From assembly GCA_016928115.1 (NCBI GenBank), contig JAFGLI010000019.1, positions 5,066-69,065 of the forward strand: 64,000 nucleotides of DNA. The letters are read 5' to 3'. Position 1 is the stretch's first letter. Each line of letters starts with the position of its first letter. Origin of the DNA: Candidatus Woesearchaeota archaeon. Its GTDB lineage: Archaea > Nanobdellota > Nanobdellia > Woesearchaeales > UBA9642. A model generated the notes under the pieces. The model saw nothing but the letters and a program-made list of their open reading frames with translations, was not told where the DNA came from and made no database searches. This document shows positions 411 through 62,159 of the stretch, piece by piece. The position numbers were made by a program, and so were the translations under genes.

Positions 411-3400
411 ATGGGTTTTTCATTAAAGCCTGTTTTAACAGGAAAACATTTAAAAACCAAAACTGTTTTTTATTTCCTTATGGTAGATTTCAGAAAGACA
501 GAAAAAAAATGGCAGGATAAATGGGATAAGAAGAAATTATTTCAGGTTAAGAAAGACAAAAACAAAAAAAAGTACTATGTTCTCGTAATGTTCCCCTACC
601 CATCAGGCTCCGGACTGCACATGGGTCATGCATTTAATTATATTGTGGGAGACATAATAGCAAGATACAAAAAAATGCAGGGCTTTAATGTTCTGCATCC
701 TATGGGATATGACTCTTTAGGGTTACCTGCAGAAAATGCAGCCATTAAGCAAAAAGAGCATCCGGGGAAATACTCAGAAAAGGCTATTAAAAATTTTATG
801 GACCAGCAGAAATCCTTAGGTATAAGCTATGACTGGTCAAGAACTGTTGAGACTCATTCTCCTGAATACTATAAATGGGACCAGTGGATTTTCCTCAAGA
901 TGCTTGAAAAAGGCCTTGCTTATCAGAAAGAGTCTTCAGTAAACTGGTGCCCTGAATGCAAAACAGTATTGGCAAATGAGCAGGTTCATGACGGAAAATG
1001 CTGGAGGCATGAAGACACAAATGTTGAGATAAAACAACTAAAGCAATGGTTCTTAAGGATAACTGATTATGCTGATGAATTATATGAAAGTATTGACTCA
1101 TTGAAAGGGTGGCCTGAAAGGACAAAAGCAATGCAGAAGAACTGGATTGGAAAAAGCCACGGAACTGAGATTGATTTTGAGATTGAAAATCCAAATAAGA
1201 AAAAAGAAATTAGTAATGTTGTAATTATTCATGGTTCTCCTCATAGTAAAAAACGAGCAAAAGAAGAACCTCAAAATAAGGCTCATTGGATTTCATGGTT
1301 GAAAAAAGAATTAGAAAAACAAGAGATAAAAGTATACAATCCTTTAATGCCTAATTGTTGGAAACCAAAATATGAAGAATGGAAAAAAGAATTTGAAAAA
1401 ATTAACATTAATGAAGATAGTGTTTTAATTGGACATAGTGCAGGAGGAGCTTTTGTGGTTAGATGGTTAAAGGAAACCGGGAAAAAAATTAATAAATTAA
1501 TTTTAATATCTGCAGGGAAAACAACAACTAAGGAAAATAAAAGATTGCATAAATTTTACAGTTTTAATATTGGTGATAAAATCAAAAATAATGTGAAGGA
1601 AACTATTATTTTTATCTCAGATGACGAACCAGATTATAGGAAGAAAAATGCCATAGAATATGAAAAAAAATTAAATGGAAAATTAATCAGTTTGAAAAAC
1701 AGAGGACATTTCACTCTAAAAGGAATGAAAACAAAAGAATTCCCAGAACTTCTTGATGAAATTATTTCAAAAACAAAATTCCCAATATTCACAACACGCC
1801 CCGATACAATCTATGGAGTAACATTTATGGTTATATCTGCACAGCATCCAAAACTTGTTGATTTGATTACAAAAGAGCAGGAAAAAGAAGTTAAAGAATT
1901 CCTTAAAAAGCTTAAATCAGTAAGTGAAAAGGAAATGGAGGATATGGAAAAGGAAGGCGTCTTTACAGGCTCGTTCGCTGTCAATCCAATGACAAATGAA
2001 AAGATTCCTGTTTATGCAGGAAATTTTGTCCTTGCTGATTATGGCTCAGGAATGGTTATGGCTGTGCCTGCCCATGACCAAAGGGATTTTGAATTCGCCA
2101 AAAAATACAATATTCCTGTAAAGATAGTAATACAGCCTGATGCCTATGACATAAATCCTGAAAAAATGTCAAGGGCTTATACTGGAAACGGCAGAATGGT
2201 AAATTCAGGGGAATTCAATAATCTACCTAATAATATTGCAATTGATGAAATCACCAAATACCTGATTAAGAAAAAATCAGGAAGAAAAACAATACAGTAT
2301 AAACTAAAAGACTGGTGCATATCAAGACAAAGATATTGGGGAACTCCCATACCAGTAATATACTGTGATAAATGCGGGATTGTTCCTGTAGCTGAAAAAG
2401 ACCTGCCTGTTAAGCTGCCTGAAAAAGTGAAATTCGGAAAAGGCAATCCTCTTGAAACAAATAAGGATTTTGTGAATGTAAAATGCCCCAGATGCAAAGG
2501 CAATGCAAAAAGGGAAACTGACACAATGGACACTTTTGTAAATTCATCATGGTATTTCTTAAGATACTGCGACCCTGAAAATAATAAAAAGATATTTGAT
2601 AAAGAAAAGGCAAAATACTGGATGCCTGTTGACCAATACATAGGCGGGGCAGAGCATGCATGCATGCACCTTATTTATTTCAGGTTTTACAACAAATTCC
2701 TGAGGGACATTGGCCTTGTTGATGTAGATGAGCCTGCAGTTAATCTGTTCCACCAGGGAATGCTTCATGGTCCGGATGGAAAGGTTATGTCCAAAAGCAG
2801 GGGCAATGTTGTGCTGCCGAAAGAGGTTTCTGAAAAATACGGCATAGATACAGCAAGATTGTTTCTTGTCTCAATAGGCTCTCCTGACAAAGACAGGGAA
2901 TGGAATGAAAAAGGAATCCGGAGCAGCCTTAAGTTCATTGAGAAAGTGTATGATTTTGTAAAAAAATTTAAAGAAAATAAGTCATCACCAATTATTGAAT
3001 CAAAGCTGCATAAAGCCATAAAGACTGTCAGCCAGGATATAGAGAATTTCAGGTATAATCTTGCTGTAATAAAGCTGAGGAAATTATTTGAGGGCATTTG
3101 CGATGAAAAAAACATTACTAAAAAAGACCTTGAAATCTTCCTGAAAATGCTTGCGCCTTTCTGCCCGCATATATGCGAGGAATTATGGGAAAAACTTGGC
3201 AATAAAGGATTTATTTCAGAAGCAAAATGGCCCGGATATGATGATAAGAAAATAAATGAAAAAGCCCTGTACTCTGAGGAGCTTGTTGATAATGTAAGGA
3301 AAGATATTCTTGAGATTATCGGGCTGATTGGAAAAGATGAGAAAGGCATCTCAGAAATTACAATCTATATTGCAGATGAATGGAAATACGGATTATATAA

Positions 3401-3692
3401 AGAGATAAAAAAAGCTATGGAAAAGACACAGGACATAAACGAGATAATGAAAGCAGTGATGAAGACAGAATTCAGGAAATATGGGAAGTATATATCCAAA
3501 AACATGAAGACCATGGTTAACCAGATGCCCTCTATGGTAACTTCAGCAAAAGAGGAGAAAAAAGTGCTTGAAAATTCAGCTGAAAAAATCACTGACTTTA
3601 AATGCAGTGTTATTATAAAGTATGAAAAGGAAGCAGGCGAAAAAGCAAACAAAAGGGCACTGCCCGGGAAGCCTGCAATTGTCATTGAATAA
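411..3692 (+). CDS. leuS: Leucyl-tRNA synthetase, bacterial-type, with an inserted alpha/beta-hydrolase domain. An alternative start at 480 (MVDFRKTEKKWQDKW) matches canonical LeuRS N-termini.
   Basis: HMGH (HIGH-class) motif 'PYPSGSGLHMGHAFNY', 'GYDSLGLPAEN', 'TTRPDT' entry to the CP1 editing domain, 'AVPAHDQRDFEFAKKY', KMSKS as 'VMSKSRGNVV', and a C-terminal anticodon-binding region. About 190 aa are inserted between 'IDFEIEN' and 'TTRPDT'. Confidence 0.9.
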   Translation: MGFSLKPVLTGKHLKTKTVFYFLMVDFRKTEKKWQDKWDKKKLFQVKKDKNKKKYYVLVMFPYPSGSGLHMGHAFNYIVGDIIARYKKMQGFNVLHPMGYDSLGLPAENAAIKQKEHPGKYSEKAIKNFMDQQKSLGISYDWSRTVETHSPEYYKWDQWIFLKMLEKGLAYQKESSVNWCPECKTVLANEQVHDGKCWRHEDTNVEIKQLKQWFLRITDYADELYESIDSLKGWPERTKAMQKNWIGKSHGTEIDFEIENPNKKKEISNVVIIHGSPHSKKRAKEEPQNKAHWISWLKKELEKQEIKVYNPLMPNCWKPKYEEWKKEFEKININEDSVLIGHSAGGAFVVRWLKETGKKINKLILISAGKTTTKENKRLHKFYSFNIGDKIKNNVKETIIFISDDEPDYRKKNAIEYEKKLNGKLISLKNRGHFTLKGMKTKEFPELLDEIISKTKFPIFTTRPDTIYGVTFMVISAQHPKLVDLITKEQEKEVKEFLKKLKSVSEKEMEDMEKEGVFTGSFAVNPMTNEKIPVYAGNFVLADYGSGMVMAVPAHDQRDFEFAKKYNIPVKIVIQPDAYDINPEKMSRAYTGNGRMVNSGEFNNLPNNIAIDEITKYLIKKKSGRKTIQYKLKDWCISRQRYWGTPIPVIYCDKCGIVPVAEKDLPVKLPEKVKFGKGNPLETNKDFVNVKCPRCKGNAKRETDTMDTFVNSSWYFLRYCDPENNKKIFDKEKAKYWMPVDQYIGGAEHACMHLIYFRFYNKFLRDIGLVDVDEPAVNLFHQGMLHGPDGKVMSKSRGNVVLPKEVSEKYGIDTARLFLVSIGSPDKDREWNEKGIRSSLKFIEKVYDFVKKFKENKSSPIIESKLHKAIKTVSQDIENFRYNLAVIKLRKLFEGICDEKNITKKDLEIFLKMLAPFCPHICEELWEKLGNKGFISEAKWPGYDDKKINEKALYSEELVDNVRKDILEIIGLIGKDEKGISEITIYIADEWKYGLYKEIKKAMEKTQDINEIMKAVMKTEFRKYGKYISKNMKTMVNQMPSMVTSAKEEKKVLENSAEKITDFKCSVIIKYEKEAGEKANKRALPGKPAIVIE

Positions 3693-3727
3693 AACATATT
3701 CCTGTTTATTCTGTATTAATAAAAAAA

Positions 3728-3735
3728 TTTATAAA
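3728..3735 (+). promoter_or_regulatory. Putative TATA box (tttataaa) about 27 bp upstream of the pilin gene ATG, suggesting a leaderless transcript
   Basis: Spacing is typical of archaeal promoters for leaderless mRNAs. Confidence 0.3.
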
Positions 3736-3757
3736 CATTTAATAATTTAGATATAAC

Positions 3758-4216
3758 ATGAACAAAAAGGGGATATCTCCGTTAATAGCTACTGTACTTC
3801 TGATTTCATTCAGCGTAGCCCTGGGAACAATGGTCATGAGCATAGGCAGGCAGGTTGCAGACACCAGTGGAGAATGCGAAGGGGTTATTCTTGAAATACA
3901 GCAGCTTAATAAAAAAGCAGTCTTGTGCTATGATACTATTGAATCATCCATAAATGTAATCCTGAAAAATATAGGGAGCACTGAAGTCAATGGGATAAAA
4001 ATGAGGGTTATTGACATTGATGAAGAAATAAACGAAGTAAACATATCAAACTCAAAGATACTGGTTGGGGGAATATTCAAAAAAAACATACCCTACAGCA
4101 ACGGAATGGGGGTTTATGTTGAGTTTATACCTTCTGTTATGAAAGAAAGCGGAGAAATAATATACTGCCCCGGGAAAAGCGTTTCAATGGACGGAGTGCC
4201 TGTATGTTCGGCCTGA
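3758..4216 (+). CDS. Archaeal type IV pilin-like protein with a class III signal peptide
   Basis: N-terminus MNKKGISPLIATVLLISFSVALG matches the archaeal prepilin signal (K-G-I/Q-S cleavage site followed by a hydrophobic helix). Confidence 0.7.
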   Translation: MNKKGISPLIATVLLISFSVALGTMVMSIGRQVADTSGECEGVILEIQQLNKKAVLCYDTIESSINVILKNIGSTEVNGIKMRVIDIDEEINEVNISNSKILVGGIFKKNIPYSNGMGVYVEFIPSVMKESGEIIYCPGKSVSMDGVPVCSA

Positions 4217-4226
4217 GAATATAAAA

Positions 4227-5261
4227 TTACTCATAAAAAAATTCTTTTAGATGTGGGTTTTCTTTTTTTAATATCTTCAATGATTTATATCTAAGCTGAT
4301 TTGCCCTTTCTCTTGAGATGTTAAATAATATTCCTATTTCTTCCAGAGTGTGTTGATTTTTCCCGTTTAAACCATAATAAAACTCAAGAATCTTTCTGTC
4401 TCTTCCATTATATTCTCCTCTTGATTCCAGTTTATCAAGGGCTTTTGAAAGTTCATCATGAAGCCTTTTTTTCCTGTAATCATCTTCAGGCATACTTTCT
4501 TCAACAGGAATAAGCTCGCTCCTTTCATCTCCTTCTTCATTAAAGGGGGATGATTCATCGAGTGAAACAAATTCTGTGAATGCCGCTTTCAGGGTATATT
4601 TGCTGTATCTTAAATCAAGCATTTCATTGATCTCATCAAGAGTGGGCTTATAGCCATACTTATTTATAAACTTCTTCTCTGCTTTTTTAACTAAACTTAT
4701 AGAATATGAAAGATTAGCAGGCATCCTGATTGTTCCAATCATTTCAGATATGTGCCTGTAAATACCTGATTTTAACCAAAAATCAGCATATGAAATAAAT
4801 TTTATCTCCTTGTATTTATTCTTATCCCTGAATTCTTTACAGTAATACTTTTCTGCAGCTGTTAAAACCTTCTCTAATCCTGCCTGTATCAAGTCTTCCT
4901 CCTGCAAGGACTCGTCTGGATTGAATTTGAAATAAATATCTCTTGCTGATTTTATGAAAAAAGGAATATTGCGGCTTACGAGTATGTTCTTTGATAATGC
5001 CTTTATATATTCTTTTGGAACATTTCCGTTTTCTGCTTTTTCCTCAAGTCCGATTTTTTCAAGAACTGAAAGCCCGGGGATTTTTTTAATGGCTGTTTTA
5101 AGATTAGTATATCTTCCAGGATTATCCCTTATGTAAGCTAACTTAATTTCCTCTTTTGGCTCCAATAGCTTCACATCTTTAAGATTGCCGTCCTTGAAAT
5201 CCTTAGGAACTAAAATATTTGATACCATTTTTATATAATCTTTACTATTAAAAAGTAACAA
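4227..5261 (-). CDS. Sigma-70 family RNA polymerase sigma factor homologue
   Basis: Region 2 'EEDLIQAGLEKVLTAAEKY...IKFISYADFWLKSGIYRHISEMIGTIRMPANL' resembles DLIQEGNIGLMKAVEKF...FSTYATWWIRQAITRAI...IRIP. Region 3 'KPTLDEINEML'. Region 4.2 'TLEEIGILFNISRERANQLRYKSLKILKK' resembles TLEEVG..F.VTRERIRQIE.KALRKLR. It has no TFB-like zinc ribbon or cyclin folds. Confidence 0.75.
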   Translation of the reverse strand: MLLFNSKDYIKMVSNILVPKDFKDGNLKDVKLLEPKEEIKLAYIRDNPGRYTNLKTAIKKIPGLSVLEKIGLEEKAENGNVPKEYIKALSKNILVSRNIPFFIKSARDIYFKFNPDESLQEEDLIQAGLEKVLTAAEKYYCKEFRDKNKYKEIKFISYADFWLKSGIYRHISEMIGTIRMPANLSYSISLVKKAEKKFINKYGYKPTLDEINEMLDLRYSKYTLKAAFTEFVSLDESSPFNEEGDERSELIPVEESMPEDDYRKKRLHDELSKALDKLESRGEYNGRDRKILEFYYGLNGKNQHTLEEIGILFNISRERANQLRYKSLKILKKENPHLKEFFYE

Positions 5262-5300
5262 TAACTAAAAGATTTAAATATCTTTCCTTTTTAGCAGAAT

Positions 5301-5310
5301 ATATATAAAT
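5301..5310 (+). promoter_or_regulatory. Putative TATA box (atatataaat) about 28 bp upstream of the ATG at 5334
   Basis: AT-rich TATA-like element at leaderless spacing. Confidence 0.25.
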
Positions 5311-5333
5311 AACAGATTATTAAACAATAAAAG

Positions 5334-6131
5334 ATGAGAATAAAACTAAAATTTACAAAATCTCTGGAGGAAAACGCATCATATTATTTTGAAAAGTCTA
5401 AAAGGGCAAAACAGAAATTAGAGAAAACCAAGAAAGCAGTGAGGGATACAAAGAAAAAGCTGGAAAATGCAGAGAAGATTACGAGTGAAGAGATAAAAGA
5501 GGAAAAGAAGAAAAAGAAACTGAAGAAAGTCATAAAAAAGAAAAAATGGTACCAGAATTTCAGGTGGTTCATGTCATCAGACGGCTTTCTTGTTGTGGGT
5601 GGAAGGGATGCAACATCAAATGAGATTATTGTAAAGAAGCATGCATCCGGAAATGACATTGTATTTCATACACAAATGGCAGGAAGCCCTTTTGTTGTAA
5701 TAAAAAATCCTTTAAATAAAGACATTCCTGATTCCACAATACAGCAGGCTGCTGATTTCTGTGTAAGCTTCAGCAGGGCATTTGACGAGGGACTGCAGAC
5801 TTCAGAGGTCTATTATGTAAAGCCCGAGCAGCTTTCCAGGAAAACCAAAGCAGGAGAATATATGGGAAAAGGCGCATTCATGGTATACGGCAAGAGAAAC
5901 TACACAGAAGGGAGGCTTAATGTTGCTGTTGGAAATTACAATGGAACCACTATGTCCGGGCCTGTTGAGGCAGTTGAAAAACACTGCAAAAAATATGTCG
6001 TCCTTAAAAAAGGAAAAGAGAAAAAAAGCGAGCTTGCAAAGAAGATAAGGCATTTATTGGAATTAGATGACCTGGATGAAATAATAAGGTTTATACCAAA
6101 AGAGGCTGAGATTGAAGAAGTAAAAAAATAA
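5334..6131 (+). CDS. C-terminal half of an NFACT/Rqc2-FbpA family protein, with a coiled coil and the NFACT-R/DUF814 domain
   Basis: Lys/Glu-rich coiled coil, then 'WYQNFRWFMSSDGFLVVGGRDATSNEIIVKKHASGNDIVFHTQMAGSPFVV...EVYYVKPEQLSRKTKAGEYMGKGAFMVYGKRNY', typical of DUF814. Confidence 0.7.
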   Translation: MRIKLKFTKSLEENASYYFEKSKRAKQKLEKTKKAVRDTKKKLENAEKITSEEIKEEKKKKKLKKVIKKKKWYQNFRWFMSSDGFLVVGGRDATSNEIIVKKHASGNDIVFHTQMAGSPFVVIKNPLNKDIPDSTIQQAADFCVSFSRAFDEGLQTSEVYYVKPEQLSRKTKAGEYMGKGAFMVYGKRNYTEGRLNVAVGNYNGTTMSGPVEAVEKHCKKYVVLKKGKEKKSELAKKIRHLLELDDLDEIIRFIPKEAEIEEVKK

Positions 6132-12418: not shown

Positions 12419-12499
12419 TTATTATAGGGGGAAGTTATGGTTTAAAAATGTTTTTTAATTGGTAATGTTTATAAAGTATATTTATTTTCTGAATATAAA

Positions 12500-12895
12500 A
12501 TGAAAATTGAACATTCCCTTCCTAAGGGAATTAATATGGGGGAAATAAAAGAAAAAAAGAACGATTACCAGAGAAAAATCGGTCTGGATATATTGCTGAC
12601 AAAAAAACCCATACGAAGAGACCAGAAAGGCATTAAATCACTAAAAGAGCTGGAGAGGATTCTGATAGAAAATGACTTCACCATAACATATATGAATGAA
12701 AGAAGAATTTTGAGGGTTCAGAGGATTATTCAGGGAATACGCGAAGAAAGAACTGATTATCCGACTTTTTACACTATAAAAATGGGGAATACGCCCAGGC
12801 ACATAAGACTAAGGGTAAAAAGCCCCATAAACAACAAAGACCCCGAGAAGCTTGTGGATATTTTATCTGAGTATGTTAAGCATTTATACAGATAA
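12500..12895 (+). CDS. Hypothetical protein, tandem paralogue A
   Basis: 131 aa; shares 'IGLDILLTK...ITY...RLRV...PE.LVDILSEYVKHLYR' with the adjacent ORF, whose counterparts are 'ISLDLLLTK...IEY...RLMA...LLEISSKFVKSLYK'. Confidence 0.5.
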   Translation: MKIEHSLPKGINMGEIKEKKNDYQRKIGLDILLTKKPIRRDQKGIKSLKELERILIENDFTITYMNERRILRVQRIIQGIREERTDYPTFYTIKMGNTPRHIRLRVKSPINNKDPEKLVDILSEYVKHLYR

Positions 12896-12915: not shown

Positions 12916-13281
12916 ATGTATGACGATATAAAAAAACTTTTTCCTGAAGAAGTTAAAATCAATAAATGGGTGGAAAAAGTAGGCGAAAGTGAAAGGGATA
13001 TAAGCCTGGACTTATTGCTGACAAAAAACCCTGTTTGTAATATTAAATTACAGGAACTGCTGACAGAAGAAGGATTTTATATTGAATACAAGGATGAGGC
13101 AAAGCTAAGAAGCCAGGAAATCTATGAAGGAAGATCCTATAAAGAAATGGGACTGACTTCATACAGAATAATAATAACAAACAACTCGTTAAGGCTGATG
13201 GCTCACGGACAGAAAAAGAATAAGGGGCCAGATGTGCTTTTAGAAATTTCTTCAAAATTTGTAAAAAGTTTATATAAATAA
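12916..13281 (+). CDS. Hypothetical protein, tandem paralogue B
   Basis: 121 aa; paralogous to 12500..12895. Confidence 0.5.
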   Translation: MYDDIKKLFPEEVKINKWVEKVGESERDISLDLLLTKNPVCNIKLQELLTEEGFYIEYKDEAKLRSQEIYEGRSYKEMGLTSYRIIITNNSLRLMAHGQKKNKGPDVLLEISSKFVKSLYK

Positions 13282-19790: not shown

Positions 19791-19856
19791 AAAAAATAAG
19801 AAATTAACTATTATTTATAAATATTATGTTCTTAACTATTATAAAGTAGAAATAAC

Positions 19857-20546
19857 CTAATACTCCACAGGATCCAGTAATTCTTCCCTTAATCTTTTCA
19901 ACAAATCTTCTTTATAATAAAAGTCATAAAAATTAGATAGAACATTTTGTCTATATTCTGAGTTTAAGTCAATTCCTCCTTTCATAATTTCTTCTATTTC
20001 ATCATCTTTGAAAAATTCTTTTTTCATTGCATATGCCATAATTTCAGGGCGGGGAAATTCTTCTACAAGAGTAATAGAATTAATACAATAATTCTCATTC
20101 CAGTTTTCCATATATTTATCCAGATCATCTTCTTTTAATGTCGTCATATATTTTTTTAACTGATGTTCAGTTAATCTTTCTATATCTGTTGGATTTGATG
20201 TTTCATCCCTGATTTTCTCATTGACAATCCTTTTTTTCCTGTTTTTAACAAGCCTTTTATAATAATCCTTAGCCTTTGAAATAACAGCAACTTCCAAAGC
20301 CTTTTCTATGCTCTCACCATTGATGATTCCTGCATTATAATCCACCTGTAAATAAAGCATATGCCTGGCATATAAATTCAAGTGATCTAAATCAATCTTA
20401 CTTATTTCCTCCAAATCTTCCTGAGCTATATTAAATGCTTCCTTATAATATAGTATTATGTCCATATTGAAATAAGTAAGACTTATTTTTTTATAAATAT
20501 TCTGTTTCTTAACTATTTTATAATAGAAACAATTATAAACAGACAC
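19857..20546 (-). CDS. Hypothetical protein
   Basis: 229-aa ORF with compositional coding bias; no recognised motifs. Confidence 0.4.
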   Translation of the reverse strand: MSVYNCFYYKIVKKQNIYKKISLTYFNMDIILYYKEAFNIAQEDLEEISKIDLDHLNLYARHMLYLQVDYNAGIINGESIEKALEVAVISKAKDYYKRLVKNRKKRIVNEKIRDETSNPTDIERLTEHQLKKYMTTLKEDDLDKYMENWNENYCINSITLVEEFPRPEIMAYAMKKEFFKDDEIEEIMKGGIDLNSEYRQNVLSNFYDFYYKEDLLKRLREELLDPVEY

Positions 20547-22115: not shown

Positions 22116-22172
22116 AAATAAAGGTAATTCATAATTATTTATAAATATTATTTTTTAAAAGTAGAAAAACAT

Positions 22173-22799
22173 CTAATTCTTTAAGCTATCCTCACTTAAA
22201 CCCCTGCCAACTGCTTTTGAGATTATCTTAAAATATTCTTCTCCGCCATGTAAAATAAGATTGTTCCTTGCTGTCTCTTTGCCGTAATTCTCTTCATTAT
22301 TCAGCAGCATTTCCAGAAACTCTTTTTGCTTAAAAACATAAATGTGTATAAACGGAATGCTAATTTCACACTTATGCCTCAATTCAGAGTATATTCTTTT
22401 TTTATTAAAAGAATCATCACATACAATAACCAAGTCAAGGTCTGATTTTTTAGTCTCTTTTCCCTTAACATAGCTTCCTGTAACCAAAGCAATAAAAAAC
22501 TCAGTAGGCATTTTCAGAAAAACATCCTCAATCTCATCAAAAGGAATATTCTTTCTTGAAAAAGCAATATGCTCTGCAATAAACCCAAGATAAGCAAAAC
22601 TCTTAACATTAAACTTTAACCAATACTGAAAAACATTCCCTATTTTGTTCCTTCTCAAAATACCTTTATCCAAGAGCCTCTTTATCCTGCTGTAAACATA
22701 ACTTCTTGAGCTATATCCTTTCATAATGTCCTGAAAGCCAAAACCTTTCCAGGGCTCTTCAATAAAACATTTCAGTAATTTATATTCTTGCTTTAGCAT
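22173..22799 (-). CDS. Nucleotidyltransferase (MNT-type, Pol-beta superfamily) with an N-terminal wHTH
   Basis: 'GSYVKGKETKKSDLDLVIVCDD' is a GS...D.D nucleotidyltransferase motif; the N-terminal 'SRSYVYSRIKRLLDKGIL' is wHTH-like. Confidence 0.6.
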   Translation of the reverse strand: MLKQEYKLLKCFIEEPWKGFGFQDIMKGYSSRSYVYSRIKRLLDKGILRRNKIGNVFQYWLKFNVKSFAYLGFIAEHIAFSRKNIPFDEIEDVFLKMPTEFFIALVTGSYVKGKETKKSDLDLVIVCDDSFNKKRIYSELRHKCEISIPFIHIYVFKQKEFLEMLLNNEENYGKETARNNLILHGGEEYFKIISKAVGRGLSEDSLKN

Positions 22800-22846: not shown

Positions 22847-23320
22847 TTAAATCTTTCTATTTACTTTAAAAATATTAGAAACAAATGTTCTGGCATTTTT
22901 AAGAGAATCTTCTGCAGGCTTCTTATTTGCCTGAGGAATGGTCTTATAAGTAAAGTGCCCTCTTTTCCATTTTTCTTTTTTGAAAATTTCCAGCAGCTCA
23001 TCAGCCCTTAATATTAATTTATTGTAAATATTTAACAATCCTAAATCGAGCTCTCCACTATCAACAAGAAATTTCTTAAAATTCTCATATGTTTTTCTGT
23101 GAATTTCGGGAGCCTTTGTTTCTATTCCTTTATTCAGAAGAATAGATTTGGCAGCATAAAAAATAGCATAATAAGAATGGGAAATAACTGAACTGTAAAA
23201 TGTTGTATTCTCAGGGATATTAAATACCTCTTTATAGTTTTCACTTAATTTTTTCAAACATTCTGCAGTTATAATCTCATTATCTGCCCTGTCCAGATAA
23301 ATTCTTGCTTTTGGTTTCAT
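22847..23320 (-). CDS. HEPN-domain protein, partner of the MNT
   Basis: 'ISHSYYAIFYAAKSILLNKGIETKAPEIHRKTYENF' fits the HEPN fold signature (hayyA..ha.kAlL...g......H); the gene is immediately upstream of the MNT gene. Confidence 0.5.
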   Translation of the reverse strand: MKPKARIYLDRADNEIITAECLKKLSENYKEVFNIPENTTFYSSVISHSYYAIFYAAKSILLNKGIETKAPEIHRKTYENFKKFLVDSGELDLGLLNIYNKLILRADELLEIFKKEKWKRGHFTYKTIPQANKKPAEDSLKNARTFVSNIFKVNRKI

Positions 23321-24334: not shown

Positions 24335-24491
24335 CTTATTATAAAAACATTCTATGTTTATAAAAATTATGTTTCTTGACTATTAAAAAGTAGATAAAAA
24401 GAAAAGCATATAGATATTATTTATTATTTGGTAGTAACAAAATGGAAATATTTATAAATAATTAATAATTTCTCTTGAAAAGGTGATATAA

Positions 24492-32425: not shown

Positions 32426-32866
32426 ATGGCAGAATATAAATCTGGACTGGTTCTTTTATTGGAAGCAAACGGTGCAACAGAAGAAGATTGTGAGGGAGTA
32501 GATAATATATGGAGAGAAAAGAGATTTCGTTCAGGAGAATATCCCATTGGAGGATTGGCTAAATTTATTGATAAAAGAATAGACTCTTCAAAAATAGATT
32601 TTGGACCTTTTTCTTATGACGACTGTCTGTTCCTCCTTCTTTTAGGAAAACCAAGAATAATACCTCATGCATTACAGGGTAAAATAAAACGTTTTAGGAA
32701 TGTAGGGCTTACCACTCCTTACTTGTATTCTGATGGAAAAGTTAGAGAAGGTACCACTAAAGGTGGATGGGATTATTTAGACTTTGCTTTTCATGTAATG
32801 GGCTTAGCAAACCAGTTTAAAATTCTTCGTGAGTTAAAATATCTAAAGCCTAAAATGTCAAAATGA
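32426..32866 (+). CDS. Hypothetical protein, tandem paralogue A
   Basis: 'AEYKSGLVLLLEANGATEEDCEGVDNIWREK...FHVMGLANQFKILRELKYLKPKM' compared with the neighbour's 'EEYESGLVRILKENGATEEDCKGVDNIWREK...FHQMGFFATRKFFRELKYLRSKM'. Confidence 0.5.
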   Translation: MAEYKSGLVLLLEANGATEEDCEGVDNIWREKRFRSGEYPIGGLAKFIDKRIDSSKIDFGPFSYDDCLFLLLLGKPRIIPHALQGKIKRFRNVGLTTPYLYSDGKVREGTTKGGWDYLDFAFHVMGLANQFKILRELKYLKPKMSK

Positions 32867-33237
32867 TGAATGAAGAATATGAATCTGGATTAGTTAGAAT
32901 ATTAAAAGAGAATGGGGCAACAGAAGAAGACTGTAAAGGAGTAGATAATATATGGAGAGAAAAGTATGGTCGTCCAAAAAAGAATGCTATATTTACATAT
33001 CACGACCGTCTGATTCTGGGAATTGTAGGTTTTATTAAAAAACCAAAAAAAATTCCCTGGGAAATCTATAAAGAATTTTCACTATATATACCTGAGGATG
33101 CTGATTTAGATAATGTTACTATTCTCTCTAAGATGGGGTATGAGTTATTAGAATTTGATTTTCATCAAATGGGATTCTTTGCAACCCGTAAGTTCTTTCG
33201 TGAGTTAAAATATCTAAGGTCTAAGATGCTCTTATAA
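32863..33237 (+). CDS. Hypothetical protein, tandem paralogue B
   Basis: Paralogous to 32426..32866; 4-nt start/stop overlap. Confidence 0.5.
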   Translation: MMNEEYESGLVRILKENGATEEDCKGVDNIWREKYGRPKKNAIFTYHDRLILGIVGFIKKPKKIPWEIYKEFSLYIPEDADLDNVTILSKMGYELLEFDFHQMGFFATRKFFRELKYLRSKMLL

Positions 33238-44522: not shown

Positions 44523-44644
44523 GTTATAATATTAACATTCATTATTTATAAATTTTTTTACTATTTAAAAATACTGAAATTATTTATATCTAGAAATTTA
44601 ATAAAACTAAACATTTATAATAAAATAATATTTACACCGAAATA

Positions 44645-48566: not shown

Positions 48567-48656
48567 TGGAATTTTCTCTTTATAATTTGATATTTTTTTA
48601 ATTACATATACTATTAAATAGTAACATTTAAATAAAAAACAGATATTCTTTCTCAT

Positions 48657-51768: not shown

Positions 51769-54261
51769 TTATTTGTTCTGGATTTTATCTTCTTCCAAAG
51801 AATCTTCGTGGTCTTTTTCCTTTATTATGGCAACATCCCTGACCTTATCATTCTCATTTAAGGACATAAGCCTTACTCCCTGTGTGTTCCTGCCTATTGT
51901 TGAAATCCTGTCACAAGAGGTCCTTATCAAAATGCCCTCTTTGCTTATCAGCATTATCTCATCATCCTCTTTCACAGACTTTACGCCGATAACATTGCCG
52001 TTTCTCTTGCTACATTTAATGTTAATAACTCCTTTGCCTCCCCTATGGATAATCCTGTAATCATTAATTTTTGTTTTCTTTCCATAGCCGTTTTCAGTAA
52101 CAGTCAATAATTTTTTATCCTCATCAGCAATTACCATACCTATAACTTCATCATCTTTCTTAAGCCTTATGCCTATAACTCCATGGGTGTTCCTGCCCGT
52201 AGGCCTTACATTATTTTCATCAAACCTTATTGCATGCCCTTTCTTTGTTGCCAGGATTATATCCTTATTGCCGTCTGTAAGGACAACATTTACCAAATCA
52301 TCATCTTTATCCAGATGTATTCCTATAATCCCTCCCTTTCTTGGCCTTGAATACTGTTCAAGAGAAGTCTTTTTCACTATTCCTTTTTTTGTAGCCATTA
52401 CAAGATAAGAATCTTCTTTAAATTCCTTTACCGGAATCAGGGCCATTATCCTGTCTTCAGGCTTTAACTCAAGGAAATTTATTATGGGCTTGCCTTTTGC
52501 ATATCTCTCAGATTCAGGTATTTTCCAGACTTTGAGCCAGTAAGCAATACCTTTGTCTGAAAAAATCAGCAGATAAGAATGGGTATTTGCAACAAAAAGG
52601 TGCTCAATAAAGTCACCTTCCCTCAGGTCAGAGGCTATAATCCCTTTTCCTCCGCGATTCTGGACCTTATAATTCTCAAGGGACATTCTTTTTATATATC
52701 CTGAATTAGTCATTGTAACAACAACAGGCTCATCCTCTATTAAATCCTCAATCTGCAAATCATCTTCTTCCTCTGCAATTATTGTTTTTCTTTCATCCCT
52801 ATATTTTTCCATTATTTCCTTAAGCTCATCTTTTATAATGGATTTTATCCTTTCCCTGCTTGAAAGAATCTCGTTTATTTCCTTTATTTTTTTAATTAAG
52901 CCGTCAAACTCATCCTTTATCTTTTTCTGCTCGATTGATGCAAGCTTCTGCAATTTCATGTCAAGTACAGCATCTGACTGAATCTTGCTAAGGCTGTATT
53001 TCTGCATTAATTTTTTTTCAGCATCTTCTCCTGAATCAGAATTCCTTATCAGGCTTATTATATCATCAACATTCTTTAATGCTGTTATCAGGCCCTCCAA
53101 TATATGAACCCTCTCTTTTGCCTTTTTAAGCTCATAATTATTCCTTTTTATCACAACATCCTTCCTATGGTCAACATAATGCCTTATGCACTCTTTCAGG
53201 CTCAGCCTCTGCGGCTTTTTTCCCACAAGGGCGACCATATTTATTGAAAAACTATCTTCTAATCTTGTTGACTTGAACAATATATTTTTTACAATTTCAG
53301 GGTTTGAATTAGCCTTAAGCTCAATAACTATCCTCACACCATCCTTGTCAGACTCATCCCTTAAATCGCTTACTTCAGTTATTTTCTTGTTTTTCACAAG
53401 GTTTGCAATCTCTTTTATAAGGTCGGACTTATTAACTTCATAAGGGATCTCTTTTACAACCAGTATTTCCTTATTGCCTTTTTTCTCAATATCAATTAAA
53501 CTTCTTATCCTGATAATTCCATGCCCTGTTTTATAAGCACTAATAATGCCGTTCCTCCCGCATATAATCCCTCCTGTCGGGAAATCGGGGCCTTTTATTA
53601 TTTCTATTAACTCAAGAATATCAATATCCGGATTATCAATATATTCTATCGTGCCCTCGCATATCTCCTTAATATTGTGGGGGGGAATGTTTGTTGCCAT
53701 GCCAACCGCAATTCCCGAAGAGCCGTTAATCAATAAATTAGGAATCTTTGAAGGCAGCACCTCAGGCTCTTTTAAAGAAGCATCAAAATTATCATTCCAT
53801 TCAACAGTCTCTTTGTCTATATCCTGGAGCATCTCCTGGCTTATCTTCGCCAATTTTACTTCAGTATATCTCATTGCAGCCTGCTTATCACCATCTAAAC
53901 TACCCAGATTACCCTGGCCTTTAACCAATGGGTATCTTAAAGAAAAATCCTGGGCCATCCTTATTAAGGCATCATATACAGCCTGGTCTCCATGGGGATG
54001 GTATTTTCCAAGAACCTCTCCCACAATCCTTGCTGATTTCTTTGTTGCCTTATTATAAGTTAATCCCATGTCATGCATTGCATAGAGAATCCTCCTATGT
54101 ACTGGTTTTAAGCCGTCTTTTACATTAGGCAAAGCCCTGCCAACTATTACAGACATGGCATAATCTATGTAAGAGGACTTCATTTCATCCTCTATTACTT
54201 CATTTATGACCTCTTTCCCAAGGATTTTTTCCCCCTGATTTTCCTGTTTTTTATCCCCCAT
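51769..54261 (-). CDS. gyrA: DNA gyrase subunit A
   Basis: '[27 protein letters not shown]', active-site 'AAMRYTE', and C-terminal beta-pinwheel repeats (…HRGGKG…); 830 aa. Confidence 0.9.
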
Positions 54262-55606: not shown

Positions 55607-55674
55607 AAAAAGAAGGAAAATATATAATAATATATAAACCTTTTTATTTGTACCTATTTAAAAGTAGAAAATAA

Positions 55675-61037: not shown

Positions 61038-62159
61038 ATGAAAAACCAGATAAGTTCTCTTGAACTGAATTATTTGACAAGGGAGTTAAAAACACTTGTT
61101 AATTCAAAACTGAATAAGGTTTACAGCAAAAAAAACAGTTTTGTTTTTGACTTCCATAAAACCAGTAAAGGAAGATTAATGTTAAAGGTTGAGCTTCCGG
61201 GAAAAATATACCTCACAAAATACAAGGAAGAATATGAAGAGCCCGGTAATTTCTGCATGTTCCTGAGAAAACATTTAGCCAACAGTTTTGTCAGGGATAT
61301 TTATACAAAGGATTTTGAGAGAATCCTGATAATTGAGTTTAAAACAAAAGAAAAAAAACTAAAACTCATATTTGAACTGTTCAGCAAAGGCAATATTGTT
61401 CTGGTTGATGATAAAGGCATTATAAAAAATATATACAGGAAAGAGGAATGGAAAGATAGAATATTAAAGCCAAAGGAAAAATACAAATTCCCTCCTTCGG
61501 GCATTAACATAATCAATATGGATATGAATGAGTTCAGGATAAAAATCATGAAAAGCAATAAGGATTTAGTAAGGACCCTGGCTGTAAAATTTTCACTCGG
61601 AGGGCTTTACAGTGAAGAAGTTTGTGTAAGGACTAAAACTAAAAAAGGAATTAATACAAGCATACTGAAAAAAAATGAACTGTTAAAACTATATAAAACA
61701 ATAAAATCAATGCTTAACAGCAAAGAAGACCCCACGGCTTATTTTGAAGATGGAAAATTAAAAGAGATAACACCTTTTGAATTAAGAATGTTCCAAAATC
61801 TTGAAAAGAAAAAATACAGCTCATTTAATGAATCCCTTGATGAAAGCCTTTCAATAATGGCTGAAGAAAAGAATGAAGAGGAAATAATAAAGACCAAAAA
61901 GGGAAAGGTAGAAAAATTAAAAGAGATTATTGAAAAACAAAAAGAGGACATAAATAAAAGGTTAAATATTATTGATGAAAACTCAAAAAAAGGGGAGATA
62001 TTATACAAAAACTACAATATGCTTAAGCAATTACTGGATGATTTCAGAAAGATACAAAAAGAGCATTCATGGGAAGAGATTAAAGAAAAACTTAAAAACC
62101 ATAAAATCATAAAGGAAATAAATGAAAAAGAAGGGTACATAATTGTTGATGTAAAATAA
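61038..62159 (+). CDS. N-terminal half of an NFACT/Rqc2-FbpA family protein (NFACT-N plus HhH plus coiled coil)
   Basis: 'FCMFLRKHLANSFVRDIYTKDFERILIIEF...LIFELFSKGNIVLVDDKG' is the NFACT-N signature; it ends in a coiled coil with no DUF814 domain. Confidence 0.7.
   Translation: MKNQISSLELNYLTRELKTLVNSKLNKVYSKKNSFVFDFHKTSKGRLMLKVELPGKIYLTKYKEEYEEPGNFCMFLRKHLANSFVRDIYTKDFERILIIEFKTKEKKLKLIFELFSKGNIVLVDDKGIIKNIYRKEEWKDRILKPKEKYKFPPSGINIINMDMNEFRIKIMKSNKDLVRTLAVKFSLGGLYSEEVCVRTKTKKGINTSILKKNELLKLYKTIKSMLNSKEDPTAYFEDGKLKEITPFELRMFQNLEKKKYSSFNESLDESLSIMAEEKNEEEIIKTKKGKVEKLKEIIEKQKEDINKRLNIIDENSKKGEILYKNYNMLKQLLDDFRKIQKEHSWEEIKEKLKNHKIIKEINEKEGYIIVDVK

Follow-up and report, generated by a model that had tools for sequence, protein, structure and literature searches.

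A sigma-70-family gene of primary-like architecture on a Woesearchaeota contig and its possible role in an archaeal host

Introduction

Sigma factors on the one side and TBP/TFB on the other represent the textbook divide between bacterial and archaeal/eukaryal transcription initiation. The sigma factors of phages and the nuclear-encoded plastid SIG proteins of plants act on the bacterial-type RNA polymerase (RNAP) of the host or the plastid. In archaea, sigma-70 genes (fam00359) were found to be 'particularly prevalent in Woesearchaeota' by Castelle et al. 2021 (PMC8204110), who excluded mis-binning, found no anti-sigma factors, recorded the presence of TBP, TFB, and TFE, and left the function open. 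According to a 2018 review (PMC6126073), Rinke et al. 2013 'first described archaeal sigma factors'. A 2024 paper on the activity of Woesearchaeota does not mention sigma factors. The subject of this analysis is one such gene, coded on the minus strand of a 64-kb window (the whole stretch of DNA analysed) out of a 74.4-kb contig of the metagenome-assembled genome (MAG) 'Candidatus Woesearchaeota archaeon'.

A first-pass annotation of the window had presented the sigma factor as unexpected in an archaeon, and had suggested a regulator, a decoy, or use on a bacterial partner as conceivable functions. The sigma-70 gene is indeed located in an archaeal genome, but it is not novel, as such genes have been published (PMC8204110; PMC6126073) and the protein is already annotated as MBN1377372.1. 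It adds an unusually isolated member to a kind of gene that is known but unexplained. Because of the earlier publications, the value of the present analysis is limited to a residue-level description of an isolated lineage, to the selection centred on sigma2, and to a candidate cis-element.

The gene resembles the DPANN-encoded sigma-70 genes (fam00359, PMC8204110) in being carried on a bona fide Woesearchaeota contig, with archaeal markers and with mis-binning excluded, and in having no anti-sigma factor nearby. As only an 84% identical orthologue is closer to it than generic bacterial RpoD, it is at best a distant member of the fam00359 or Rinke set, to which it is likened here by published description. 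With phage sigma factors (PHROG 351, E 1e-25) and the plastid SIG proteins it shares the location of a sigma-70-family gene outside the bacterial genome whose polymerase is served; unlike in these systems, no bacterial-type RNAP was seen in the 64-kb window. A likeness to archaeal TFB and TFE would be functional only, and there is no relationship to them in sequence or fold.

Identity of the sigma-70-family protein

The open reading frame (ORF) at 4227..5261 (-), 344 aa long when read from TTG, was confirmed as sigma-70-family, and the motifs DLIQAG, SYADFWLKSGIYRHI, IRMP, and TLEEIGILFNISRERANQLRYKSLKIL quoted for it by the first-pass annotation are all found in it. It is an intact gene with group 1/2-like layout, comprising regions 1.2, 2, and 4 and probably region 3, and lacking region 1.1. 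The model NCBIfam TIGR02393 (RpoD_Cterm) matches residues 93-339 with E 3e-30 and covers regions 2-4, and the family-level model TIGR02937 is passed with 49.0 bits against a cutoff of 42.9. In a phmmer search of the PDB, cyanobacterial SigA was the top match (E 1.2e-27), with 65 sigma chains at E<=1e-3, and region 2 used alone as a query still matched SigA (E 2e-6). The hhalign alignment to the Bacteroidota-type sigmaA spans residues 46-331 with a probability of 99.9% and E 6e-35. An AlphaFold2 (AF2) model of the protein has a mean predicted local distance difference test (pLDDT) value of 65.8, with 82-92 in sigma4 and less than 50 at residues 1-56, and all 50 of its 50 top Foldseek matches are primary sigma chains. 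These highly significant matches bear out the earlier assignment to the family.

The reading of regions 2, 3, and 4.2 was confirmed by HMMER only in part. Sigma70_r4 (PF04545) is the sole Pfam sigma domain model that passes (32 bits, cutoff 24.1), Sigma70_r3 stays sub-threshold with 13.5 bits in the window protein and 19.4 bits in the orthologue, and the match of Sigma70_r2 to the protein is not significant. The failure of the r2 model, and probably also that of the r3 model, is due to sequence divergence and not to absence of the domains: region 2 is recovered in the PDB search described above, and the sigma3 region is covered by the RpoD model alignments and modelled as helical by AF2. Sigma70_r1_1, representing region 1.1, gave zero matches even at E<=10, and no homology is detectable for residues 1-45.

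Its scores against the models place the protein with the primary-like factors (group 1/2) and not with the extracytoplasmic function (ECF), FliA, or SigB/F/G types. The layout of ECF or group 4 factors, which consists of sigma2 and sigma4 only, does not apply, as region 1.2 and probably region 3 are present and the best scores belong to group 1/2 models. The equivalog models of RpoD, RpoS, and SigA were all far under their cutoffs; the best was TIGR02393 with 105.6 bits against 354. The protein has a single Cys and no Pfam match to TFIIB, zinc-ribbon, cyclin, or winged-helix domains, in agreement with the earlier remark that it lacks every TFB feature.

Compared with the bacterial primary and primary-like factors (group 1/2, RpoD/SigA/RpoS), among which cyanobacterial SigA (PDB 8h3v, 8gzg) and a compact Bacteroidota sigmaA of 288 aa matched best, the protein has the same order of regions (1.2, 2.1-2.4, probably 3.0-3.2, and 4.1-4.2) and the same fold. 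It differs from them in being encoded by an archaeon and only 31-37% identical, in its unique 45-aa N-terminus without region 1.1, in an insertion of 8 aa in the 2.2/2.3 loop, in substitutions at core-binding and promoter-specificity positions, and in missing all equivalog cutoffs.

Gene model and domain layout

In the database entry MBN1377372.1 and in the orthologues P0001 and P0002, the protein begins with the internal ATG (position 5228) and is 333 aa long. The stretch between this ATG and the upstream TTG is probably promoter DNA and not coding (Table 1). A GTG at codon 19 is kept in both orthologues. The transcription start and the start codon are tentative, because the TATA-like box on the sigma side abuts the ATG. 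From here on, residues of the protein are numbered according to the 333-aa version.

The N-terminal part of about 110 aa had been described as non-canonical. The N-terminus is unusual, but only over about 45-56 aa, as profile-profile alignment recovers regions 1.2 and 2.1 from residue 46. The segment LLEPKEEIKLAYIRDNPG, taken by eye for region 1.2, was replaced by residues 46-68, where hhalign puts this region.

Table 1. Features of the sigma-70-family gene and its upstream region (positions in the window)
Feature	Position	Strand	Basis
Sigma-70-family gene	4227..5228	(-)	333 aa + stop, ATG start; exact-sequence match to GenBank MBN1377372.1
In-frame upstream extension to TTG (344-aa version)	5229..5261	(-)	database orthologues all 333 aa; promoter-like motifs; ~95% DNA conservation
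Lineage-specific N-terminal extension, residues 1-45	5094..5228	(-)	no detectable homology; low AF2 confidence; fast-evolving; hhalign begins at residue 46
Region 1.2-like segment, residues 46-68, AIKKIPGLSVLEKIGLEEKAENG	5025..5093	(-)	hhalign to region 1.2 of Bacteroidota-type sigmaA
Sigma2 domain, residues 69-170, regions 2.1-2.4	4719..5024	(-)	alignments to SigA; near-invariant between orthologues
8-aa insertion KEFRDKNK, residues 131-138, region 2.2/2.3 loop	4815..4838	(-)	gap in all PDB and bacterial alignments; present in both orthologues
Sigma3 domain and region 3.2 linker, residues 171-246	4491..4718	(-)	RpoD models, PDB alignment, AF2; Pfam r3 sub-threshold
Sigma4 domain, residues 247-333, region 4.2 helix-turn-helix	4230..4490	(-)	Pfam Sigma70_r4 above cutoff; AF2 pLDDT 82-92
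Divergent sigma / NFACT-R intergenic control region, 105 bp	5229..5333		~95% identical between two genomes
Near-palindromic motif TTACTTTTTAATAGTAA, core CTACTTTWWAAWAG	5242..5258		7 nt from TATA-like box (sigma side), 17 nt (NFACT-R side)

Among the columns conserved at >=80% in 40 bacterial homologues, 38 out of 64 are kept in the protein. For single residues, the numbering of E. coli sigma70 is used; the mapping is our own and agrees with the ranges of the PDB alignment. Sigma2 has kept D403, Q406, Y430, W434, R441, and the TIRxP motif, with a conservative F in place of W433; positions Y430, W433, and W434 are the DNA-melting aromatics. The acidic loop of region 3.2 is kept, as are R584, E585, R586, and Q589 in the core of region 4.2, which has the pattern TLEEIG..(S/T)RER.NQ.

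The substitutions R385P, V387F, E407A, N409L, and G411K are alike in both orthologues. In bacteria, the sigma2.1/2.2 face carrying these positions touches the beta' clamp helices. A further sigma2 change, G424E, is also identical in the orthologues, and so are the changes at promoter-specificity positions Q437S, T440Y, H455N, and R588N. From the canonical -10/-35 recognition set (Q437, T440, R584, E585, R588), three residues are thus changed, while R584 and E585 are kept. The 2.2/2.3 loop with the 8-aa insertion is the -10 'specificity loop', which shapes the pocket for the -10 base.

Genomic context

The sigma gene is flanked on both sides by archaeal and archaeo-eukaryal markers, namely RadB, an MBF1-like protein, CDC48, GatD, an archaeal-type apgM, the RFC large subunit (RFC-L), Tyw1/Taw1, uS2, and the directly adjoining NFACT-R. 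The archaeal character of the neighbours, noticed already in the first reading, is therefore upheld by RadB, the MBF1-like protein, RFC-L, CDC48, GatD, and Tyw1, and by archaeal promoters with a B-recognition element (BRE) and TATA box on most genes. The gene order LeuRS / 152-aa pilin-like / sigma / NFACT-R / ... / glycosyltransferases / RadB recurs across four independent assemblies/samples: the NCBI MAG, a second MAG (L001; 84% protein identity), JGI contigs (one at 98%, another being L003), and a Logan re-assembly (L010). Homologues in related archaeal bins, which the first-pass annotation had proposed to look for, are represented by the 84% orthologue at the syntenic locus of L001. In composition the sigma gene is host-like, with G+C content of 0.33, G+C content at third codon positions (GC3) of 0.30, and a codon-usage distance of 0.086, all inside the range of its neighbours. 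A chimeric or bacterial contig, which would have undone the initial claim, is excluded by the shared gene order of the four assemblies together with the host-like composition.

Within the 64-kb window, no gene was found for an RNAP subunit of bacterial or archaeal type, for TFB or TBP, for an anti-sigma factor, or for another sigma factor, which also answers for this window the suggested check for bacterial RNAP genes. No mobile-element, integrase, or phage genes are located near the sigma gene, and both flanks are syntenic. A provirus or mobile-element origin was ruled out, as a scan of viral contigs gave only an irrelevant partial match of 27% and the flanks are syntenic.

Directly adjoining the sigma gene is the gene for NFACT-R, the RNA-binding part, at 5334..6131 (+). 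The NFACT/RqcH-type ribosome quality-control protein is apparently split in this genome, as the NFACT_N part is coded 55 kb apart at 61038..62159 (+). On the other side, the pilin-like gene 3758..4216 (+) is convergent with the sigma gene at a distance of 10 bp, and its position is kept in the orthologous loci. Its product of 152 aa has no Pfam match, and the N-terminus MNKKG/ISPLIATVLLISFSVALG resembles the class III signal peptides of archaea, which are of type IV pilin-like kind.

The orthologous contig CAZQLC010000003.1 (GCA_964594025.1; L001/L002) encodes proteins 84-94% identical to those of the window and is labelled 'uncultured Methanosarcinales archaeon'. This label is probably a taxonomic mislabel, or the bin is contaminated with, or consists of, a DPANN genome.

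Relatives, origin, and selection

An exhaustive phmmer search of 1.84 billion (1.84e9) representatives revealed one close cluster only (P0002, 84% identity), beyond which RpoD-like proteins of bacteria and phages follow without a break at 31-39% identity. A word-index search likewise recovered only the 84% cluster, and scans of GTDB and metagenomes re-found the same lineage and nothing else. Among the best real distant matches is the bacterial P0135 in dnaG-rpoD context; P0136, also among the nearest distant relatives, is located in a phage-like gene block. No donor clade could be named from the search of 1.84e9 representatives. The entries P0101, P0102, and P0106 were rejected as intermediate relatives. 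They have internally duplicated segments with two copies of regions 2-4, which inflate their scores and make them look intermediate, and they are probably assembly artefacts.

It is almost certain that the gene is an intact sigma-70-family gene of primary-like architecture and ancient bacterial origin, taken from bacteria long ago by this Woesearchaeota (DPANN) lineage and now a stable chromosomal gene.

The sigma gene is under purifying selection, which is strongest at sigma2 to sigma3.1. In comparison with the L001 orthologue, dN/dS (the ratio of non-synonymous to synonymous substitution rates) is 0.22, with no indels or stops over 333 codons at dS 0.4; for seven neighbouring genes compared between the same two genomes it is 0.05-0.10. 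Codon differences are distributed unevenly, with 5 synonymous and 12 non-synonymous in the N-terminus (residues 1-56), 6 and 12 from region 1.2 to region 2.1 (residues 57-105), 13 and 5 in regions 2.2-3.1 (residues 106-200), and 15 and 19 in sigma4 (residues 247-333). The changes in sigma4 are mostly in the fast-evolving C-terminal helix, while a stretch of 48 residues in sigma2.3-3.0 is 100% conserved between the orthologues. As sigma2/3.0 is the most constrained, the part under constraint would be the module for RNAP docking and DNA melting and not the helix-turn-helix of a stand-alone binder.

Promoters and a candidate cis-element

Most of the 46 upstream regions in the window (those with a gap of >=45 nt) contain a BRE/TATA-like AAACATTTATAAA element of very regular architecture, from which it follows that the organism uses ordinary archaeal promoters. 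From the end of the element, AAACATTTATAAA(C/T)A, to the ATG there are about 22-30 nt (e.g., 3727-3757, 12419-12499, 24335-24400, and 44523-44644), the element itself being placed about 25-32 nt ahead of the ATG in most regions, and this spacing implies that the mRNAs would be mostly leaderless. In a minority of genes, the element is located further upstream, and a GGTGA Shine-Dalgarno sequence then precedes the ATG by 5-8 nt.

The divergent control region between the sigma and NFACT-R genes has kept its high identity while dS of the flanking genes is 0.4-0.9, which points to regulatory constraint. The core CTACTTTWWAAWAG of its near-palindromic motif, with <=1 mismatch, occurs six times in the window against 1.2 +/- 1.2 expected, and 1 of 100 shuffles gave as many as six. 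Each of the six sites is in an intergenic region (5242-5258, 19836-19849, 20513-20526, 22151-22164, 24380-24393, and 55654-55667), and weaker sites are found at 44560-44574, at 48608-48624, and upstream of 35202. A TATA(A/T)A box follows the core at a distance of 7 nt or 16-17 nt; in the divergent promoters at 5242-5258 and 20513-20526 there are two TATA-like boxes, one at 7 nt and one at 17 nt from the core. Downstream of the sites are mostly genes for small uncharacterised proteins; the sigma gene itself and a dCMP-deaminase-like gene are also among the downstream genes. The perfect palindrome TACT-N7-AGTA is not significant in the window (2 vs 0.6 expected), and neither is the 15-mer of the motif with <=3 mismatches (14 vs 8.8); a modest enrichment is limited to the degenerate 14-mer core. 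The core is recorded here as a lead, a candidate transcription-factor site or regulon element.

Possible roles of the protein

The RNAP clamp coiled-coil is the docking site of sigma2 in bacteria and of TFE in archaea, and both factors stabilise the open complex. The most likely role of the window protein, proposed only tentatively on the basis of the sequence comparisons, would be that of a sigma2-centred promoter-binding and melting factor co-opted by the archaeal RNAP. The sigma2 module would dock on the clamp coiled-coil of archaeal Rpo1, and through the kept melting residues Y430, W433F, and W434 it would contact AT-rich promoter DNA as well as the non-template strand. The protein could then act beside TBP/TFB as an auxiliary, gene-specific factor of promoter recognition or melting. 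The substitutions R385P, V387F, E407A, N409L, and G411K may represent adaptation to the archaeal Rpo1 clamp, and Q437S, R588N, and the 8 aa inserted into the loop may jointly represent a promoter specificity other than TTGACA/TATAAT. This role is judged most likely because selection is focused on sigma2-3.0, the melting residues are kept, the C-terminal helix of sigma4 is drifting, and the core contacts are replaced. The clustering of the changed residues at core-binding and specificity positions, the same in both orthologues, is also counted in its favour.

Several points weigh against co-option by the archaeal RNAP. Changes at key bacterial core-binding residues fit a loss of RNAP binding as well as re-adaptation. 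Archaeal RNAP is not known to have an equivalent of the bacterial flap-tip helix that anchors sigma4. Canonical sigma-70 -35/-10 sites are not enriched in the window (95 vs 91.7 +/- 10.1 in shuffles), and dN/dS of the sigma gene is 2-4 times above that of the neighbouring genes. The constraint is read from a single pairwise comparison, as there are two diverged orthologue clusters only.

A selected sigma gene in an organism with ordinary BRE/TATA promoters implies either that the initiation module is reusable on a Pol II-like polymerase or that sigma can have a function independent of RNAP. Either outcome would bear on the interchangeability of initiation machineries and on how DPANN archaea run bacterial-derived genes.

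A role as a stand-alone regulator is possible but rather unlikely. In this case, the function in a holoenzyme would be lost and the protein would be a helix-turn-helix repressor or activator on a double-stranded operator, e.g., CTACTTTWWAAWAG by the TATA box, modulating recruitment of TBP/TFB. Most archaeal regulators are helix-turn-helix proteins of bacterial type. The absence of region 1.1, the autoinhibitor of DNA binding by free sigma, agrees with such a regulator, as do the altered core-binding residues and the recurrence of the motif 7 or 16-17 nt from TATA boxes, including the highly conserved promoter of the sigma gene itself. However, the sigma4 helix-turn-helix is among the least constrained parts of the protein and constraint is strongest in sigma2, which carries the melting aromatics, nothing ties the motif to the sigma protein, and its enrichment is modest, a count equal to that of the window having been reached by one shuffle in a hundred.

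An improbable variant of co-option by the archaeal RNAP is that the protein works via the Rpo1 clamp coiled-coil on hybrid promoters consisting of CTACTTTWWAAWAG 7 or 16-17 bp upstream of TATA(A/T)A, the longer spacing of 16-17 bp matching the bacterial -35/-10 geometry. If this were true, there would be a sigma-dependent regulon, its own autoregulated promoter included, inside a TBP/TFB organism, and the protein would be the first example of an initiation factor of bacteria that works with a Pol II-like polymerase.

Action on a bacterial RNAP seems quite improbable. It could be the polymerase of a partner or host, to which sigma would be delivered and which it would redirect like a phage sigma, or a bacterial-type RNAP coded elsewhere in the genome. 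Castelle et al. 2021 (PMC8204110) speak of DPANN archaea as presumed episymbionts, there is the match to PHROG 351 of the phage sigma factors, and P0136 is found among phage-like genes. On the other side, there is no evident signal peptide or secretion-associated neighbour, the near-invariant bacterial core-binding residues (R385, V387, E407, N409, G411) are substituted, and no bacterial RNAP gene was found in the 64 kb. No report of such an RNAP was found in the literature searched, and RNA polymerase is not mentioned by Castelle et al. 2021 (PMC8204110).

That the gene is a functionless relic of an old transfer, drifting to loss, is very unlikely. The failing Pfam r2 and r3 models, the many changed conserved residues, the elevated dN/dS in comparison with neighbouring genes, and the rarity of the lineage would suit a relic, but not the dN/dS of 0.22 over uninterrupted 333 codons at dS 0.4, the invariant 48-residue stretch in sigma2.3-3.0, or the constrained promoter region.

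A component of anti-virus defence like the sigma-like MzaA of the MZA system is hardly credible: the sigma portion matches MzaA models (NCBIfam E 2.6e-26, PADLOC E 4.6e-15), but the match is limited to the generic C-terminal sigma domain of MzaA (~450-700 of 683-726) and reaches 92.7 bits against a cutoff of 800, and the neighbours have no PADLOC match and are housekeeping genes. The identity with MzaA, a protein of ~700 aa, was therefore rejected.

A bacterial fragment, e.g., from the candidate phyla radiation (CPR), or a viral one mis-assembled or mis-binned into an archaeal contig can practically be dismissed, as the adjacency is the same in four independent assemblies/samples with archaeal genes on both sides, G+C, GC3, and codon usage are in the host range, viral contigs gave no relevant match and no mobile-element genes are nearby, the sole oddity being the 'Methanosarcinales' label on the orthologous contig, from which no support was gained.

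Other genes of the window

The gene for leucyl-tRNA synthetase (LeuRS), 411..3692 (+), has a clean insertion of ~194 aa (nt ~1191-1772, residues ~261-454) exactly where the catalytic core adjoins the CP1 editing domain. The inserted part is a serine hydrolase domain of RBBP9/YdeN type (Pfam PF06821, E 2e-13; PDB 2qs9, E 2e-9) with the nucleophile elbow GHSAG. In the orthologue from L001 (876 aa, 83-92% identical) the flanks are joined directly, without insertion. The true start of LeuRS is probably M24.

A nucleotidyltransferase of NTP_transf_2/Polbeta type and a HEPN protein, coded at 22173..22799 (-) and 22847..23320 (-), form a typical MNT-HEPN toxin-antitoxin arrangement. Two tandem pairs of small paralogous genes without Pfam match are present on the plus strand, at 12500..12895/12916..13281 and at 32426..32866/32863..33237; their similarity was judged by eye, and the second pair shares, e.g., '...GATEEDC.GVDNIWREK...'.

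A full-length bacterial-type DNA gyrase subunit A with six C-terminal beta-propeller blades is coded at 51769..54261 (-) (E 1e-165). It is another bacterial-type information-processing gene in the same archaeon as the sigma gene.

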